DNA of 22,986 nucleotides, from IMG/VR virus record IMGVR_UViG_2519899565_000007. One strand, 5' to 3'. The DNA is from a virus. Its lineage: Duplodnaviria; Heunggongvirae; Uroviricota; Caudoviricetes. Below the pieces are notes generated by a model. That model saw only the letters and a program-made list of their open reading frames with translations. It had not been told where the DNA came from and did no database searches. How positions within the stretch are numbered: the stretch's first letter is position 1; the number at the start of each line of letters is the position of its first letter. The position numbers and the translations under genes are program-made. Positions 1,580-22,445 of the stretch are shown here, piece after piece.

Positions 1580-1646
1580 ATTACCTGAAAAACCACATAT
1601 GGATATATAACCCATAAATACGAACAGATATTACCTTTCAGGTGAT
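1580..1646. repeat. Copy 1 of a shared regulatory element: ATTACC-N5-AACCACATATG ... ACGNACA ... 17-bp palindrome ATTACCTTTCAGGTGAT (1630-1646)
   Basis: Direct comparison with 18509-18587: identical ATTACC, AACCACATATG and ATTACCTTTCAGGT blocks in the same order and orientation. Lies in the divergent region between the tailspike start and the plus-strand 85-aa gene. Confidence 0.7.
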
Positions 1647-1979: not shown

Positions 1980-2001
1980 AGAAAAGGCCGCGAAAGCGGC
2001 C
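1976..2001 (-). terminator. Intrinsic terminator (GGCCGC-GAAA-GCGGCC) with a T-tract on the minus strand
   Basis: 6-bp GC stem 1986-1991/1996-2001 with GAAA loop; minus-strand continuation TTTTCTTTAT (rc of 1976-1985). Follows the stop of the 98-aa membrane gene and sits at the convergent junction with the plus-strand 85-aa gene. Confidence 0.65.
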
Positions 2002-2002
2002 T

Positions 2003-2014
2003 GTGACATGTCAC
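2003..2014. repeat. 12-bp palindrome GTGACATGTCAC (copy a), overlapping the stop codon of the minus-strand gene 2011..2307
   Basis: Exact palindrome; the same 12-mer recurs at 21825-21836 and with one mismatch at 16521-16532 and 19560-19571. Confidence 0.7.
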
Positions 2015-2307
2015 GTCCCTTTTCTGAATGATAGCCATTCGAAAAATGATGACATTCCACCGCAGACAATAGCAAAGATGATCCCACCAAAGAAGAGAAG
2101 GCCAGCCTGCCACCACTCCCACCGCCATACATCCACAGCGCCAACCATACCAACAATCGCTCCAACAAATGGAATATAGCTCACGATGAAAGCAATGGGG
2201 GCTGCAATTATCCAGTGCAATCCCCACCATGATTCAAGCCCAGCCATAATTGCTGCCAACTGAAAAAGACCAACGACGATATAAACAATGAATCCTATAG
2301 CTTGCAT
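2011..2307 (-). CDS. Small hydrophobic membrane protein (98 aa, about 3 predicted TM segments)
   Basis: ATG at 2307 with AGGTGA 5 nt upstream; sequence dominated by hydrophobic stretches (FIVYIVVGLFQLAAIMAGL, IIAAPIAFIVSYIPFVGAIVGMVGAV, LLFFGGIIFAIVCGG). Confidence 0.6.
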   Translation of the reverse strand: MQAIGFIVYIVVGLFQLAAIMAGLESWWGLHWIIAAPIAFIVSYIPFVGAIVGMVGAVDVWRWEWWQAGLLFFGGIIFAIVCGGMSSFFEWLSFRKGT

Positions 2308-4982: not shown

Positions 4983-6785
4983 TTAACCTCTCAAGAAACA
5001 CGCCACAGCAACATCAAACAGGCTGGAATCCTGTATTGCCTGCTCACTTTCCCTGTTCGCTTCATCCAGTACTTCACGCGCACTGCGCGATTGTGGATTA
5101 CCATCATCATCCAGCACGGTGATTATCATGTCCGGAGATTCAAGCAGCGAGTCTTCAGCTATACGCAGATCAATATCTCCTGCCGGATCTGCCATCATTT
5201 TTTGTTCTGTCTGTTGCAATATCTTACCGGGCTCAAAAGGAGCTACTTCGTCTGGCGTCCTGACCTCTGCTGTTTTATAGAATGAAACAGCCTGAGCATT
5301 AAGTTCACTTTCTGCCTGCTGTCTCCGAGCCAGTTCTGCTCGAGCTTCAAAAAACTGACCGCCAGGCTCATGCGGTGCCAACGCGTTACGAGAAAATTCC
5401 AGGCGTTCTTGTGCCTGCCGGATTCGTTGGTCAATATCGCGAAGTCTGGCCTGTTTATCTGATCGAGCACGAGACAAAGCTTTACCGCTACCGGTTGGCT
5501 CTTCTGCAAGAATTTGTGCACGCTGTTCAGTGAGATTTTCAATAATTCGTTGGCTATTAGCGATTTCAGACTGGTAAACCTGTCTATCTCCACGCGGCAA
5601 AAGCTGCGCGGCCTGTTCTTCAAGCAACCGATTTTCTATAGCGCGCGCCGTTACTCCATCATCTACAGATGACAGAGCCTCATTAACTGCCTGAGACAGC
5701 AGACTCTTGCGCCCAGGAATTTCACTGAAAGATGCAGACTCAACAATGCTGGCAACGTCTACAGGTCTCCCCTGGCTAACATCAGACATAGCTTTTCGCA
5801 GAGCCTGAATGTGAGAATTGCGCGAAAGCACGTTGATCGGCACGCCGGGAGAAATATCAATTTCAGCATGATGAGCGGCATTCGCCGCCAGTGCCGCATC
5901 GACATCAACTGGTGAAAAATTGGGGGTGCTTGTAGCCTCACCGCGAGAGTTAATAAATCTGCCGACACCACCAAACGCCACCCCAAGAACAGCATCAATA
6001 GCGATTGCCTGTCGATCCAACACATCATACTGGTTAGCCATTTCGCTATAGCCACCATCACGAAGCGTTTTTGCAGTAAGCCCACGCTGTGCCATACCGA
6101 ACGCAATATTTGTACCTGCGGCATAGGCAATATCTGGCGTTGCACGTACTGCTGTTGCTGCGGCGCGTCGCACTGAACTTTCACCCGTCCGCGCAAGCTG
6201 AGCCGCCACACCTTCCGCCAGCGCACCACCAGCACGTAACCCGAGGCTCATAGGGATCAGTGTTCCGGCACCAGCAGTAATACCCTGCACTAATCCCGCT
6301 TCCTGCGCCGTCCTGAAATCAACACCCTGTGCTGTCAGCCGTTCAAACTCAGAAAAACCCTGTAGCGAAGTTACCGCCGCAGCACCTCCGACCGGACCAC
6401 CGAGCGTTGTACCGATAACAGCCTGCCCGCCCATATCGAACAACCCATAAAGAACCTGCCCGGCGGTTCCGGTTGTCGCGGCATCAGGCGTCAGCCGCTT
6501 AACCTGCTGCTCTGCTAGTTTTCTCTGCTCGGCAATGTATGAAACTGAAGTGTCATTGAGCGAGGTGTTTTCGTTAACAAACTGAGCAATCGGGGATACG
6601 ATTTTATCCATCCCTGCCCAGAGCAACTGATCTGGCTTTGCCACCAGCCCGGAGTACAAACCAGACAATGCCGCTCCTACAGCATTGTCGAAAAAACCAA
6701 CATCGCTGTTAAAGCCAACTGGATTTGATGCTGCTTCGTCAAGCTGCTGATTCTGGTTTACTGGATTAAGGCCAAAGTAACTCAT
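4983..6785 (-). CDS. Internal virion / ejection protein (600 aa), Gly/Ala-rich N-terminal half and coiled-coil-like C-terminal half
   Basis: ATG at 6785 overlapping the upstream stop (ATGA); composition typical of ejection/core proteins. Confidence 0.7.
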   Translation of the reverse strand: MSYFGLNPVNQNQQLDEAASNPVGFNSDVGFFDNAVGAALSGLYSGLVAKPDQLLWAGMDKIVSPIAQFVNENTSLNDTSVSYIAEQRKLAEQQVKRLTPDAATTGTAGQVLYGLFDMGGQAVIGTTLGGPVGGAAAVTSLQGFSEFERLTAQGVDFRTAQEAGLVQGITAGAGTLIPMSLGLRAGGALAEGVAAQLARTGESSVRRAAATAVRATPDIAYAAGTNIAFGMAQRGLTAKTLRDGGYSEMANQYDVLDRQAIAIDAVLGVAFGGVGRFINSRGEATSTPNFSPVDVDAALAANAAHHAEIDISPGVPINVLSRNSHIQALRKAMSDVSQGRPVDVASIVESASFSEIPGRKSLLSQAVNEALSSVDDGVTARAIENRLLEEQAAQLLPRGDRQVYQSEIANSQRIIENLTEQRAQILAEEPTGSGKALSRARSDKQARLRDIDQRIRQAQERLEFSRNALAPHEPGGQFFEARAELARRQQAESELNAQAVSFYKTAEVRTPDEVAPFEPGKILQQTEQKMMADPAGDIDLRIAEDSLLESPDMIITVLDDDGNPQSRSAREVLDEANRESEQAIQDSSLFDVAVACFLRG

Positions 6786-16287: not shown

Positions 16288-16584
16288 TCACTCCTGTTCA
16301 CTGGCCTCTTTGGCCATCTTCAAATACTGTTCAGGGCAATGCGCCATAACGCGCTGAAACAGTTCCAGCGCCAGATTGCGTTGCCCCTCATTAAATGCCA
16401 TTGCCATAGCATCCATCGGAGAGATAGCGGAAAACACCCGGCCTTTCTCCAGCACAGACCAGACAACGCGACGCCCCTGTTCACTGCTCATGACAAAGCG
16501 AATGTCATCAATTTCACGCTGTGCCATGTCACGTTGCTTACGGGCGTTTTCTTCTTTCAGTTGATCGTCTTCGTAATCTGTCAT
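16288..16584 (-). CDS. Hypothetical small head-module protein (98 aa)
   Basis: ATG at 16584 overlapping the portal stop (ATGA); AGGGTGGG upstream. Confidence 0.55.
   Translation of the reverse strand: MTDYEDDQLKEENARKQRDMAQREIDDIRFVMSSEQGRRVVWSVLEKGRVFSAISPMDAMAMAFNEGQRNLALELFQRVMAHCPEQYLKMAKEASEQE
16521..16532. repeat. Copy d of the palindrome family: GTGCCATGTCAC (1 mismatch), flanks match copy a (TGTG-CATGTCACGT)
   Basis: Direct comparison with 2001-2016; lies inside the 5' part of the 98-aa gene. Confidence 0.5.
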
Positions 16585-18508: not shown

Positions 18509-18587
18509 ATTACCAATTTAACCACATATGATTTATTTATCGTAGATAGTTGACATTTAACGCACAAATTATTACCTTTCAGGTAAT
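18509..18587. repeat. Copy 2 of the shared regulatory element, with a 12-bp insertion carrying TTGACA (18550-18555); perfect 17-bp palindrome ATTACCTTTCAGGTAAT (18571-18587)
   Basis: See copy 1; lies between the minus-strand 68-aa/portal genes and the plus-strand tRNA unit. Confidence 0.7.
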
Positions 18588-18908: not shown

Positions 18909-18985
18909 GTGGCATTAGCTCAGTTGGACAGAGCAACCGCCTTCTAAGCGGTTGGTCGCAGGTTCGAATCCTGCATGCCACGCCA
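18909..18985 (+). tRNA. tRNA-Arg (anticodon UCU), argU-like, CCA encoded
   Basis: Hand-folded cloverleaf: acceptor GTGGCAT/ATGCCAC, U8-A9, D-arm GCTC-AGTTGGACA-GAGC, anticodon arm ACCGC-CTTCTAA-GCGGT (UCU at 18943-18945), T-arm GCAGG-TTCGAAT-CCTGC, discriminator G, CCA. D, anticodon and T arms match E. coli argU as recalled. Confidence 0.9.
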
Positions 18986-19028
18986 GAATCACGCCTAAGG
19001 ACCGTGATGCCAGAAGTTCCAGGTGCTT

Positions 19029-19070
19029 GGCGGTGATAGTTTCCCTTGAAGGACTATCACCGCCCTTTTT
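19029..19070 (+). terminator. Strong intrinsic terminator after the tRNA (12-bp perfect stem plus CTTTTT)
   Basis: GGCGGTGATAGT (19029-19040) pairs with ACTATCACCGCC (19053-19064), followed by TTTTT at 19066-19070. Confidence 0.85.
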
Positions 19071-19100
19071 ACAGCAGGACGCCATTGCGATGACTTCATG

Positions 19101-19116
19101 CTGTAAACCCGTACAG
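19101..19116 (+). promoter_or_regulatory. Weak LexA-like site CTGTAAACCCGTACAG (CTGT-N8-ACAG), between the two tandem terminators
   Basis: Correct half-site spacing but the centre is GC-containing and the flanks are non-consensus. Confidence 0.25.
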
Positions 19117-19148
19117 CCACGGAAAGCATAACTCATTGCTTCCAGTTC

Positions 19149-19172
19149 GCCCGGTTCGCCGGGCATTTTTTT
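19149..19172 (+). terminator. Second intrinsic terminator/attenuator (GCCCGG-UUCG-CCGGGC followed by A and U7) ending 11 nt before the start codon of the 123-aa ORF
   Basis: 6-bp GC stem with UUCG tetraloop and seven Ts (19166-19172); then AAGGTGAG (SD) and ATG at 19184. Confidence 0.7.
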
Positions 19173-19183
19173 AAGGTGAGATT

Positions 19184-19555
19184 ATGAACGACCAGCAAAT
19201 CGAAAAAGAAATCGTTGAGAAAGGCAAAACGGCACCGCGCGTTACGCCAGACCATATCGAAGGCATTATTGCTCAGGAGGCATATTTCACAGCAGAAGAT
19301 GGTGCCTTTGGCAAAGCCATAAAAGCGAAACATACTGGCGGAGAGGTAAACTACCAGCCGCACGAATCACTTTCTCTGCTGACGTTCTGCGTCCTGGTGC
19401 TGCGCAACGGCTTCACCGTCACCGGAGAGAGTTCCTGTGCAAGTCCGGAAAATTTTGATGCAGAAATTGGTCGGAAGATTGCCCGGCAGAATGCTGTAAA
19501 CAAAATCTGGATGCTCGAAGGTTACTTGCTGAAGCAGAAGTTAAGCGAGCAATAA
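19184..19555 (+). CDS. Hypothetical 123-aa protein (moron), antisense to the structural operon
   Basis: ATG with AAGGTGAG SD; flanked by intrinsic terminators on both sides; no family recognised by eye. Confidence 0.6.
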   Translation: MNDQQIEKEIVEKGKTAPRVTPDHIEGIIAQEAYFTAEDGAFGKAIKAKHTGGEVNYQPHESLSLLTFCVLVLRNGFTVTGESSCASPENFDAEIGRKIARQNAVNKIWMLEGYLLKQKLSEQ

Positions 19556-19559
19556 CACC

Positions 19560-19571
19560 GTGGCATGTCAC
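19560..19571. repeat. Copy b of the palindrome family: GTGGCATGTCAC (1 mismatch), 4 nt after the 123-aa stop and 3 nt before a terminator hairpin
   Basis: Direct comparison with the copies at 2003 and 21825. Confidence 0.55.
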
Positions 19572-19574
19572 AAA

Positions 19575-19602
19575 CAGCCAGCCTATGAGCTGGCTTTGTT
19601 TT
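19575..19602 (+). terminator. Intrinsic terminator (AGCCAGC-N6-GCTGGCT then TTGTTTT) at the convergent 123-aa/large-terminase junction
   Basis: 7-bp stem 19576-19582/19589-19595 with T-tract 19596-19602; A-tract upstream may give weak activity on the minus strand. Confidence 0.7.
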
Positions 19603-21121: not shown

Positions 21122-21714
21122 TGATTGCCATCCTGACGTTCTTTCAGTCTCTTCCTGGCTGCCGCTATGCGATCAGCAATTGTCACATTCACATTAACAT
21201 CCAGGCGTTCTTTGAATGCGTTGACGTCGACGTGCTTACCAATCAGTTCGAGGTTCTTCACCTTGTCAGGCCATTTAATTTTTTTGAGGATTGTCTCTAT
21301 CGAATCCTCGTTCATGTTCATGATGGTCGATGACAGATCAAAGCCACTAAGCGTAGTGCGCCAGATTTTCGGCCACTCACGGATTGGTTTAAGGCTCCCA
21401 TCGTCGTTGAGGATATCGATCACGTCCATCTGGTCGATCTCCACCAGGCGCATGAGAACGTAATCAGCACTGACGCGCATTCGTTTGTTGCGCTCCTCCA
21501 TCAACTCGGCAATCCGTTTTTGAATGCGTTCATCGCGCATCATGACACTGGCTTTAACTGCCGCTGTATTTGGGGAGAATCCTGCGTTAATCGCTGCCTG
21601 AGTCTGGTTTTCAGGCGTTTTGATGTATGACTGGCAATAAGCCTCCTGCATTGCTGTTAGTGGCTTAAATTGCGTTGATTTGCGTTTATAGGTTTTAGGT
21701 TCAGCAGGCATCAT
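21118..21714 (-). CDS. Terminase small subunit (P27-like family), about 198 aa
   Basis: Immediately upstream of and coupled to the large terminase; motifs ...AINAGFSPNTAAVKAS... and ...LELIGKH... typical of phage small terminases as recalled. ORF-track start 21792 is TTG; tandem ATGs at 21714/21711 follow GGTGG. Confidence 0.75.
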   Translation of the reverse strand: MMPAEPKTYKRKSTQFKPLTAMQEAYCQSYIKTPENQTQAAINAGFSPNTAAVKASVMMRDERIQKRIAELMEERNKRMRVSADYVLMRLVEIDQMDVIDILNDDGSLKPIREWPKIWRTTLSGFDLSSTIMNMNEDSIETILKKIKWPDKVKNLELIGKHVDVNAFKERLDVNVNVTIADRIAAARKRLKERQDGNQ

Positions 21715-21721
21715 AACCACC

Positions 21722-21753
21722 GTGGTAATAGTTACCGTTGTGGTAATAGTACC
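21722..21753. repeat. Tandem imperfect direct repeat GTGGTAATAGTTACC / GTGGTAATAGT-ACC just upstream of the small-terminase start
   Basis: Two ~15-bp units separated by GTT; each contains GGTAA-N-TTACC-like half-sites related to the ATTACC/GGTAAT half-sites of the 17-bp palindrome. Confidence 0.55.
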
Positions 21754-21756
21754 ATG

Positions 21757-21783
21757 CAAAATAAAGCCGCCATAGTTGGCGGC
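21757..21783 (-). terminator. Intrinsic terminator (GCCGCC-N6-GGCGGC followed by UUUAUUUUG on the minus strand) upstream of the terminase genes
   Basis: 6-bp GC stem 21766-21771/21778-21783; minus-strand T-tract is the rc of 21757-21765. Confidence 0.65.
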
Positions 21784-21824: not shown

Positions 21825-21836
21825 GTGACATGTCAC
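21825..21836. repeat. 12-bp palindrome GTGACATGTCAC (copy c), overlapping the stop codon of the minus-strand gene 21833..22171
   Basis: Exact match to copy a; same register relative to the TGA stop (G-TGA-CATGTCAC on the minus strand). Confidence 0.7.
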
Positions 21837-22171
21837 ACTATTAATTTCGTTTCATGCCAGCCTTTAGTCACCCAGCATTGCGAGTCACCATTGCACGGGC
21901 ATGAATTAACTGGAACTCTCTCGCCGCACTTACCGCAACGTTTTCTGCTGATCGATTTTATACGCCCGCGCACGCGTGCATCATCCTGGCGGATCAGTAA
22001 CGCTATATACTCACCAAATTCGTAAGGCGCACGCCCGGGGCGACGCGTGGCACAGTTACGCTCCAGCATTTCAATTTCCTGAGCATCAAGCACAATTTCC
22101 AGCTTACGCACACCAGATGCAGCTTGTCTGGCTCTCTGAGCGGCTTTGCGCTCTGCTGCTGATTTAGCCAT
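21833..22171 (-). CDS. Hypothetical basic protein with C-terminal Cys-rich zinc-ribbon-like motif (112 aa)
   Basis: ATG at 22171 (ORF-track start 22174 is TTG); CGKCG...CPC motif; 8-nt overlap with the upstream gene. Confidence 0.55.
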   Translation of the reverse strand: MAKSAAERKAAQRARQAASGVRKLEIVLDAQEIEMLERNCATRRPGRAPYEFGEYIALLIRQDDARVRGRIKSISRKRCGKCGERVPVNSCPCNGDSQCWVTKGWHETKLIV

Positions 22172-22445
22172 CAATATTTACCTTTATCGCGAACACCTTT
22201 ACCGGTTTATCACCGAAGTGGGGATGTGTGATTGTCTTGATTTCATATCCGTCATACGGGACGTTAATTCTGCGGCTGGAGTCGTCGCGCTTCGGATATC
22301 CCTTTGTGATAATCAGACGGTCATACTTACGGTTAACGAGGCGCTTTTTCCAGTAGTCATTACACAGGCGATACTCTTCCGTTTTCTCTCCGCGAATCAT
22401 GGCATCGAAGTATTCACCTTTGACGGCAAGTTGCAGGTTAGCCAT
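22164..22445 (-). CDS. Hypothetical phage protein (93 aa)
   Basis: ATG at 22445 overlapping the upstream stop by 8 nt (ATGGCTAA). Confidence 0.55.
   Translation of the reverse strand: MANLQLAVKGEYFDAMIRGEKTEEYRLCNDYWKKRLVNRKYDRLIITKGYPKRDDSSRRINVPYDGYEIKTITHPHFGDKPVKVFAIKVNIDG

Follow-up and report, generated by a model that had tools for sequence, protein, structure and literature searches.

What does a 12-bp palindrome do that recurs at the ends of transcription units of a prophage, twice sharing the stop codon of the last gene? We addressed this question in a stretch of 22,986 nt (the whole of the DNA analysed, here called the window), which megablast comparisons identified as a prophage of the phiV10/epsilon15 type (Uetakevirus) whose late genes are read from the minus strand, at ~97.5% identity to phiV10, the O157 typing phages 9 and 10 and TL-2011b, and at 76–81% identity to Tyrion and epsilon15. 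Phages of the epsilon15/phiV10 type include O157-typing and serotype-converting phages, and control of their late genes is not settled in the literature found. This motif is missing from the annotation of the curated epsilon15 record, which lists sites for repressor, IHF, RNase III and integrase, and a full-text literature search of incomplete coverage returned no publication of it. Taken together, the comparisons below predict a conserved protein-binding site, with a strong candidate for the binder encoded on the spot.

Recurrence and layout of the palindrome in the window

A motif scan of the window found GTGACATGTCAC exactly at two places (sites a and c) and with one mismatch at two more (GTGGCATGTCAC at site b, and GTGCCATGTCAC inside a head gene; Table 1). 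These four matches compare with an expectation of 0.04, and none of 100 shuffled sequences reached four. The initial annotation had chosen its motif freely, after seeing the sequence, and to correct for this choice any 12-mer palindrome family with ≤1 mismatch was counted in dinucleotide shuffles, of which 1 in 300 reached four, so that the excess of four copies over chance was borne out. The list of open reading frames also agrees that both exact copies overlap the stop codons of minus-strand genes: in 2011..2307 and in 21833..22174 the terminal TGA occupies motif positions 9–11, which places both in a common G-TGA-C register. A C-terminal peptide common to these two genes was considered and rejected, since their upstream codons differ. 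The copy at 19560 begins 4 nt past the stop of the plus-strand 123-aa reading frame (19184..19555) and ends 4 nt from the scanned terminator stem, and thus lies between stop codon and hairpin, as first described.

Read along the late strand, the 113-aa gene is followed by site a, a terminator, two repressor-type operators, TerS and TerL; next come a hairpin, site b, an opposite-strand gene of the N4-gp49/Sf6-gp66 family together with a tRNA-Arg gene, and a further operator; the portal gene and the structural genes then lead to site c, a terminator, an opposite-strand anti-repressor-like gene and the last operator. By this layout a site plus hairpin closes the early-right operon and each of the first two late units, and the sites adjoin terminators at unit ends, which upholds the placement originally proposed for the palindrome. 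Site a marks the end of the early-right operon, with its hairpin 41 nt and the repressor operators and TerS about 80 nt downstream. Site b directly adjoins its hairpin, and site c lies immediately 5' of its own, in a convergent gap with the plus-strand anti-repressor-like gene; at sites b and c the palindrome is always on the hairpin side that has no T-tract. Each late unit starts with a prophage-repressor operator of the class annotated as 'repressor' protein_bind features in the epsilon15 record, and this placement suggests three late units, each directly under repressor control.

Table 1 Positions of the palindrome copies and associated features in the window and, in the last four rows, of palindrome copies in lambdoid-type contigs (numbered within each contig).
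Feature	Position	Strand	Sequence or class	Context
Site a, exact	21825..21836		GTGACATGTCAC	Overlaps TGA 21833-21835 (-) of the predicted RHH regulator gene
Site b, one mismatch	19560..19571		GTGGCATGTCAC	Convergent gap between TerL (-) and the N4-gp49/Sf6-gp66-family gene (+)
Site c, exact	2003..2014		GTGACATGTCAC	Overlaps TGA of 2011..2307 (-), last gene of the long structural operon
One-mismatch copy	16521..16532		GTGCCATGTCAC	Within the Bbp19-like head gene 16288..16584
Candidate binding-protein gene, 112/113 aa	21833..22174	-
Intrinsic-terminator-like hairpin	21766..21783	-	GCCGCCAACTATGGCGGC + TTTATTTTG	Between site a and TerS
Terminator hairpin	19576..19595	+		Proper T-tract on + strand only; site b on the other side
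Terminator hairpin	1985..2002	-	AGGCCGCTTTCGCGGCCT + TTTCTTTATG	Closes the structural operon; abutted by site c
Two tandem prophage-repressor-type operators	21713-21729, 21731-21747		ATTACC-N5-GGTAAT class	Just upstream of TerS, start of late unit 1
Repressor-type operator, exact	18571..18587			Start of late unit 2 (portal to structural genes)
Repressor-type operator, 1 mismatch	1630..1646			Past site c on the late strand; next late unit starts here
Two palindrome copies, contig L271	2532, 4755
Two palindrome copies, contig L273	1191, 3380
Two palindrome copies, contig L284	6429, 9757
Two palindrome copies, contig L295	624, 2733

Several simple identities for the palindrome were rejected at this stage. 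It is not itself a prophage-repressor operator, as the epsilon15 'repressor' sites are a different motif (ATTACC-N5-GGTAAT). A cos site or genome end is contradicted by the three copies per genome, and the phiV10 record is merely cut after the TGA of its last gene; TerL is annotated in the records as P1 PacB-like and Sf6 gp2-like, which we take to be headful-type enzymes. PADLOC returned no defence-system match.

The stretch between site b and late unit 2 has features of its own. ARAGORN places a tRNA-Arg gene (anticodon TCT) at 18909-18985 on the plus strand, opposite the late genes, where it overlaps an 83-aa minus-strand reading frame (18915-19166, homologue of phiV10 p04) that may for this reason be spurious. 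Together with the N4-gp49/Sf6-gp66-family gene (19184-19555), the tRNA gene gives the impression of a single opposite-strand insert whose end is at site b. Between the tRNA gene and the 123-aa gene, inside this otherwise single unit, lie two strong terminator-like hairpins on the plus strand (19029-19064 and 19149-19164), one of them with a 14-bp stem.

Conservation of the sites and their linkage to one gene family

Conservation in related phages, a check that the initial annotation had proposed, was found for the copies at 21825, 19560 and 2003, which are kept at syntenic positions. Sites a, b and c are syntenic in phiV10, TL-2011b, Tyrion, epsilon15, SPN1S, 65FD and BUCT711, with not all three in every genome, and in the complete genomes of the last six the motif is exact at the syntenic positions; around these conserved sites the flanks diverge and the central dinucleotide sometimes differs. 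Site a is exact and in the same place in these six phages and in ST11-OXA245phi3.2. Site b, which has one mismatch in the window, is exact in phiV10, epsilon15, Tyrion and SPN1S, and TL-2011b, BUCT711 and ST11-OXA245phi3.2 each have one of sites b and c missing from the sequence examined. The phiV10 copies at sites b and c are exact, and that at site a spans the record junction and deviates at one position (GTGACATGTTAC). The hairpin at 21766-21783 is conserved in epsilon15, Tyrion, SPN1S and 65FD, and in TL-2011b (at 32282) site c and its terminator have moved together as a unit. The early, lysis and integration regions contain no copies of the palindrome.

The fourth copy behaves differently from these three. 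The homologous codons of epsilon15, Tyrion, SPN1S, BUCT711 and 65FD carry no site, nor is the copy conserved outside the phiV10 subgroup, and the copy at 16521-16532 is therefore probably fortuitous, a lineage-specific chance near-match. Of the recurrent family of four first proposed, the three conserved copies stand and the intragenic copy falls away.

Two observations on individual records concern site a. The phiV10 GenBank/RefSeq record (L001) is linearised inside the palindrome, ending with ...GTGA and starting with CATGTTAC, so that site a is split and invisible to ordinary motif scans. In BUCT711 (L195, about 380-430) and at loci L208 and L082, a LexA-box promoter driving a UmuD-like gene directly follows site a; this insert (TTGACT ... 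TATACT with CTGT-N8-ACAG, 6 nt from the palindrome) is an SOS-controlled element that separates the regulator from TerS.

These comparisons bear directly on the simplest explanation, that the recurrence reflects chance or forms part of the RNA structure of the terminators. The probably fortuitous copy at 16521 and the position of three copies beside hairpins would fit it. The shuffle statistics given above and the exact syntenic conservation in diverged genomes argue against chance, and the palindrome folds weakly as RNA (-1.2 kcal/mol, z about 0, or -0.03), with strict sequence conservation and no compensatory changes in a stem. We accordingly rejected both an RNA element and an intrinsic terminator hairpin, the real terminator hairpins being separate, adjacent elements. 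The comparative data effectively refute this explanation, and we give it a negligible probability.

We then considered which gene the palindrome accompanies. The regulator gene that ends at site a is present in every Uetakevirus fetched, a search for one without it as a natural negative control having found none. Translated searches found homologues at 31–42% identity in N15 (gene 46), phiKO2, P2-like Yersinia phages, and Vibrio and Aeromonas phages; the family spans N15-like, P2-like, lambda-like and Vibrio phages. Of all 227 fetched loci encoding a homologue, which are highly redundant and in effect amount to a handful of independent lineages, 209 contain an exact copy of GTGAC-NN-GTCAC no more than 300 nt from the stop codon of the homologue, and 198 of the 227 have it in the same G-TGA-C register. 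The loci cover several deeply separated lineages with unrelated neighbour genes. Most misses fall at record ends, in truncated genes or among the most distant homologues, and one of the last group, at 29% identity, still has GTGACGGGTAAC at its stop. When bacterial genomes were counted once per species, the site was present in 21 of 23. By chance, the site would be expected at about 3e-4 per locus, and base composition predicts about 0.3 copies per 4.6-Mb genome; the roughly 17 kb of flanking Klebsiella chromosome in one locus (L227) contain none.

The centres of the sites are family-specific, and the homologues at 31–42% identity (N15, a P2-like Yersinia phage, Chlobot, K308) all have GTGAC-NN-GTCAC nearby. 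The same-register overlap with the stop codon recurs in N15 (GTGACTGGTCAC) and in a Yersinia phage (GTGACGCGTCAC). In lambda-like Chlobot, a phage with an N and a Q of its own, the gene is accompanied by a single site, 6 nt past its stop, and Vibrio phage K308 has three copies in 23.7 kb, two of them 19-20 nt before start codons, one being that of TerS. In N15-like elements a second copy lies inside repA in nearly all loci, and a third, upstream of the anti-immunity promoter, is often kept. Across these loci, the true motif is the 12-bp GTGAC-N2-GTCAC, with strictly conserved half-sites and a variable centre. We consider it likely that the protein encoded at site a binds the palindrome, and gene and site make up a compact cassette that moves between podo-, sipho- and myovirus genomes.

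N15 itself (L005) has GTGAC(TG/CA)GTCAC at 28550, 33237 and 39269; one copy is at the gene 46 stop, one within repA, and one about 25 nt upstream of a promoter (TTGACG-17-TAGAGT) in the leader of the anti-repressor operon (genes 32-30). The only non-enterobacterial named species among the matches is Limoniibacter endophyticus, whose contig (L224) encodes a homologue 38% identical to the window protein with an N15-type site (GTGACTGGTCAC); this could be a plasmid prophage, a transfer or contamination.

The persistence of this linkage is also the main difficulty for a reading in which a host factor binds the palindrome, or in which the palindrome is a short recombination linker for mosaic genomes, as the initial annotation had offered among its suggestions, and the gene is linked to it only through a module boundary. 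Homology between the window and BUCT711 begins exactly at 2003, a unit of site plus terminator was transplanted in TL-2011b, and some contigs have two copies with no visible homologue in the fetched stretch, all of which would suit such a reading. Against these stands the one small gene family that stays linked at 29–42% protein identity in podo-, sipho- and myovirus genomes, and a 12-bp linker would not stay beside one gene while the neighbours are unrelated and the central dinucleotide changes; the conservation is explained without it. Nor does a known host factor have this spacing (CRP, N6; MatP, N3). We regard this reading as very unlikely.

A predicted ribbon-helix-helix protein and its known counterparts

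The gene at site a belongs to the family of phiV10 p55, epsilon15 gp49 and N15 gp46 (PHROG 536), which bears the label 'transcriptional regulator'. The 113-aa window protein matched no Pfam or NCBIfam family. Its AlphaFold2 model (pLDDT 90.8) is a ribbon-helix-helix (RHH) with a cysteine cluster, and an alignment of 56 members has invariant Arg residues in an N-terminal basic helix, a variable strand, two helices and a cysteine cluster made of CxxC plus two more Cys. From model and alignment together, the protein is predicted to have an RHH fold with an N-terminal basic helix, an RHH domain and a C-terminal cysteine cluster. Curated RHH models touched the family weakly (E 0.01-0.07: RHH_5 and RepB-RCR_reg in 2 of 56 members each, RHH_1 in 1 of 56), a profile search against PDB gave weak hits to TraR (E 0.026) and YbiI (E 0.029), and the sole match in a viral fold library was a fragment of the same protein family. 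The ribbon varies in step with the centre of the site, while the Arg residues of the basic helix are invariant, and a dimeric protein of the predicted RHH kind fits a 12-bp palindrome with fixed arms and a variable centre. Binding as a dimer is suggested by the two-fold symmetry of the site and by its co-occurrence with the gene. Of the two kinds of recognition site first proposed, protein or RNA, the fixed half-sites and variable centre favour protein, and the weak fold speaks against RNA.

RHH repressors such as P22 Arc, Mnt, CopG, omega and the type II antitoxins have the ribbon-helix-helix fold in common with the predicted phage protein, which adds the N-terminal basic helix and the C-terminal Cys cluster and is missed by Pfam RHH models. 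The operators of these repressors overlap a promoter upstream of the regulated gene, often their own; the primary phage site instead lies at the 3' end of a gene or operon, often with the stop codon, and the extra sites lie beside terminators. The phage sites did not show the operator-over-promoter arrangement; they lie at 3' ends, in convergent gaps or just before a ribosome-binding site. An RHH regulator with its operator is a kind already known, and it is the 3'-end, terminator-associated placement that is atypical.

The closest likeness at the level of DNA is to matS, the site of MatP, which organises the Ter macrodomain of E. coli; the 13-bp matS consensus GTGACRNYGTCAC has a 3-bp spacer (PMC6907758). 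The phage half-sites equal the matS half-sites (GTGAC), but the phage sites are all 12 bp with a 2-bp spacer and lie at operon ends, whereas matS lies in the chromosomal terminus region; by its spacer, the palindrome is no member of the matS/MatP system. The phage protein, like MatP, has an RHH-based dimeric DNA-binding fold by prediction, but it has the cysteine cluster in place of a four-helix bundle. An hhalign comparison with E. coli MatP (single sequence) gave E 0.098 and a probability of 0.6%, and neither the window protein nor any of the 56 family members matched the MatP Pfam models PF06303 and PF17414. The MatP relatives retrieved in a protein search were all near-identical E. coli sequences. 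Protein and site may be related to MatP/matS by descent or may have converged on it, and the identical half-sites raise the question of how one spacer base separates host from phage recognition. At position 6769 of K308 (L193), the phage with three 12-bp sites, there is also a 13-bp sequence, GTGACACCGTCAC, that fits the host matS consensus.

This likeness is the starting point of an architectural reading, akin to MatP/matS or to a plasmid centromere, in which dimers at dispersed sites would bridge or loop phage DNA and so organise the structural region or serve segregation or replication. Besides the identical half-sites, it would account for dispersed sites of which some lie inside genes (N15 in repA, BUCT711, K308); the long helix after the RHH could mediate higher-order assembly, N15 is a plasmid prophage, and K308 encodes a ParA-like protein. 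However, many phages (the P2-like group, Chlobot) have a single site and thus nothing to bridge, a centromere would be of no use to an integrated prophage, the spacer lacks one base relative to matS, and the MatP comparisons above show no relation at the sequence level. We consider an architectural role improbable.

Two further resemblances were examined and set aside. Copies a and c read TGTGA...TCAC(A), as in a CRP site (TGTGA-N6-TCACA), but the half-site spacing is 4 here and 6 in CRP, so the initial statement that this is no CRP site was confirmed, and we likewise agree that it is no LexA site. Residues 49-110 of the protein have weak profile similarity to the TraR/DksA C4 zinc finger (E 0.026-0.03), with a long helix followed by CxxC; in contrast to TraR/DksA (CxxC-N17-CxxC), the second Cys pair of the phage family is not CxxC, and the phage helix, which belongs to the predicted RHH fold, cannot enter the polymerase secondary channel as that of TraR does. 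The TraR/DksA match is below any reliable threshold.

Candidate roles at the ends of transcription units

How might such a protein act at these places? Our leading reading, which we hold tentatively, is that the palindrome is the predicted operator of the phage RHH protein and acts at transcription-unit boundaries. An RHH dimer from the gene at 21833-22174 (-) would bind GTGAC-N2-GTCAC, with one site at the end of the regulator's own operon, usually with the TGA inside GTGAC as the stop codon, and, in epsilon15/phiV10-like phages, with two extra sites next to the terminator hairpins at which the TerS-TerL unit and the long structural unit end. Once bound, the protein would form a DNA block or insulator, keeping polymerase from the next unit or from the antisense strand of a convergent gene; it would also limit the expression of whatever directly follows its own operon and, by overlap with the stop codon, may limit the regulator's own message.

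Known roadblock terminators include Tus-Ter, the eukaryotic TTF-I and Reb1, the mitochondrial mTERF, and bacterial repressor roadblocks resolved by Mfd. The device proposed here would resemble them in that a sequence-specific protein at the 3' end of a transcription unit sets the boundary, but there is no homology, and the phage sites are coupled to intrinsic hairpin terminators. Being palindromic, the phage sites would act in both directions.

Several observations favour a boundary or roadblock as the effect, which we consider possible if somewhat short of probable. Divergent promoter regions contain none of about 17 distinct sites, the rare convergent gaps contain several, and the favoured places are operon ends, convergent gaps and positions a few bases before the next ribosome-binding site. 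Where an extra gene follows the regulator gene (L208, L082, L218), the site follows the stop of that gene instead. In an Enterobacter sichuanensis prophage (L212, 10336-10400), a strong intrinsic terminator, CCGCCGGAAACGGCGG with a T-run, replaces the palindrome after the regulator, and at another locus (L198) a convergent gap without a canonical terminator is occupied by two sites. In the E. sichuanensis prophage, palindrome copies are found 6.4 kb upstream and 5.3 kb downstream.

Other findings count against this effect. In one direction sites b and c are directly followed by a good terminator, which seems to make a roadblock superfluous, and polymerase coming from the other side would stall about 15 nt before the site with the hairpin unfinished. 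The K308 sites do not adjoin terminators. At site a, GTGACA resembles a -35 hexamer and is followed 17-18 nt on by a -10-like hexamer in three sublineages, which promoter control would fit equally well.

A narrower variant, in which the protein is a sequence-specific phage termination or insulator factor that binds the palindrome at its own stop, truncates its own message and is thereby self-limiting, and binds other operon ends too, seems to us rather doubtful. The initial suggestion of an RNA processing site found no support.

The arrangement at site a also invites comparison with lambda Q: a regulator gene stands immediately upstream of the late genes, and the gene is followed by a DNA site and then a terminator. 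In a late-operon switch of the lambda-Q or late-activator kind, binding at site a would lead to terminator read-through or control a late promoter, with sites b and c as auxiliary or reload sites. The regulator is the last early gene, and the order of site a, terminator and TerS equals that of Q, PR', tR' and the late genes; a lambdoid locus (L201) has the same order, with a site at the stop, hairpins, and then holin and lysozyme; in K308 the TerS start codon follows a site at a distance of 19 nt; and a site precedes all three late units, with none after the last. The promoter-like hexamers described above would suit such a switch as well, yet a promoter at site a matches the consensus at 9 of 12 positions, no better than in shuffles.

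Several features are hard to reconcile with a late-operon switch. The protein family is unrelated to that of lambda Q (element at PR', tR'), with no Pfam (including the Q-family models), NCBIfam or structural match between the regulator and Q proteins, and no pause element was identified here; unlike in lambda, there are several sites, one also at the end of the late operon. The cassette occurs in phages with their own Q (N15 and Chlobot), where it stands in non-late contexts, and Ogr is present in the P2-like phage. Site b comes after the hairpin, not before it, on the late strand, and antitermination at site c would send late transcripts antisense to the anti-repressor gene. Only 12-20 nt separate the site from the next start codon in N15, Chlobot and K308, too few for an activated promoter between them, and each late unit has its own prophage-repressor operator. 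We judge the late-operon switch as a whole unlikely, and treat a Q-like or promoter-control role at site a as a serious rival to the boundary reading.

Whatever the effect, a family with a generic label (PHROG 536) is here tied to a precise predicted DNA target, with an unusual placement of the operator at the 3' end of a gene, a stop codon in common, and other copies beside terminators. If the boundary reading is true, a protein-defined transcription boundary would be a regulatory device not yet described for phages, comparable in bacterial viruses to TTF-I, Reb1 or mTERF, and would offer a compact insulator part for synthetic biology.

A separate set of lambdoid-type viral contigs carries two copies of TGTGACATGTCACA each, 2.1-3.3 kb apart (Table 1). 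The fetched 6-14 kb of these contigs contain no homologue of the RHH gene, which makes another binder or a distant copy of the gene possible, and the phage collection yielded no complete relatives. In L271 the copies flank a cI-like HTH repressor gene and both lie inside reading frames, where they are read as C-D-M-S-Q; a YdaT-family gene contains one of the copies in L271, L273 and L295.
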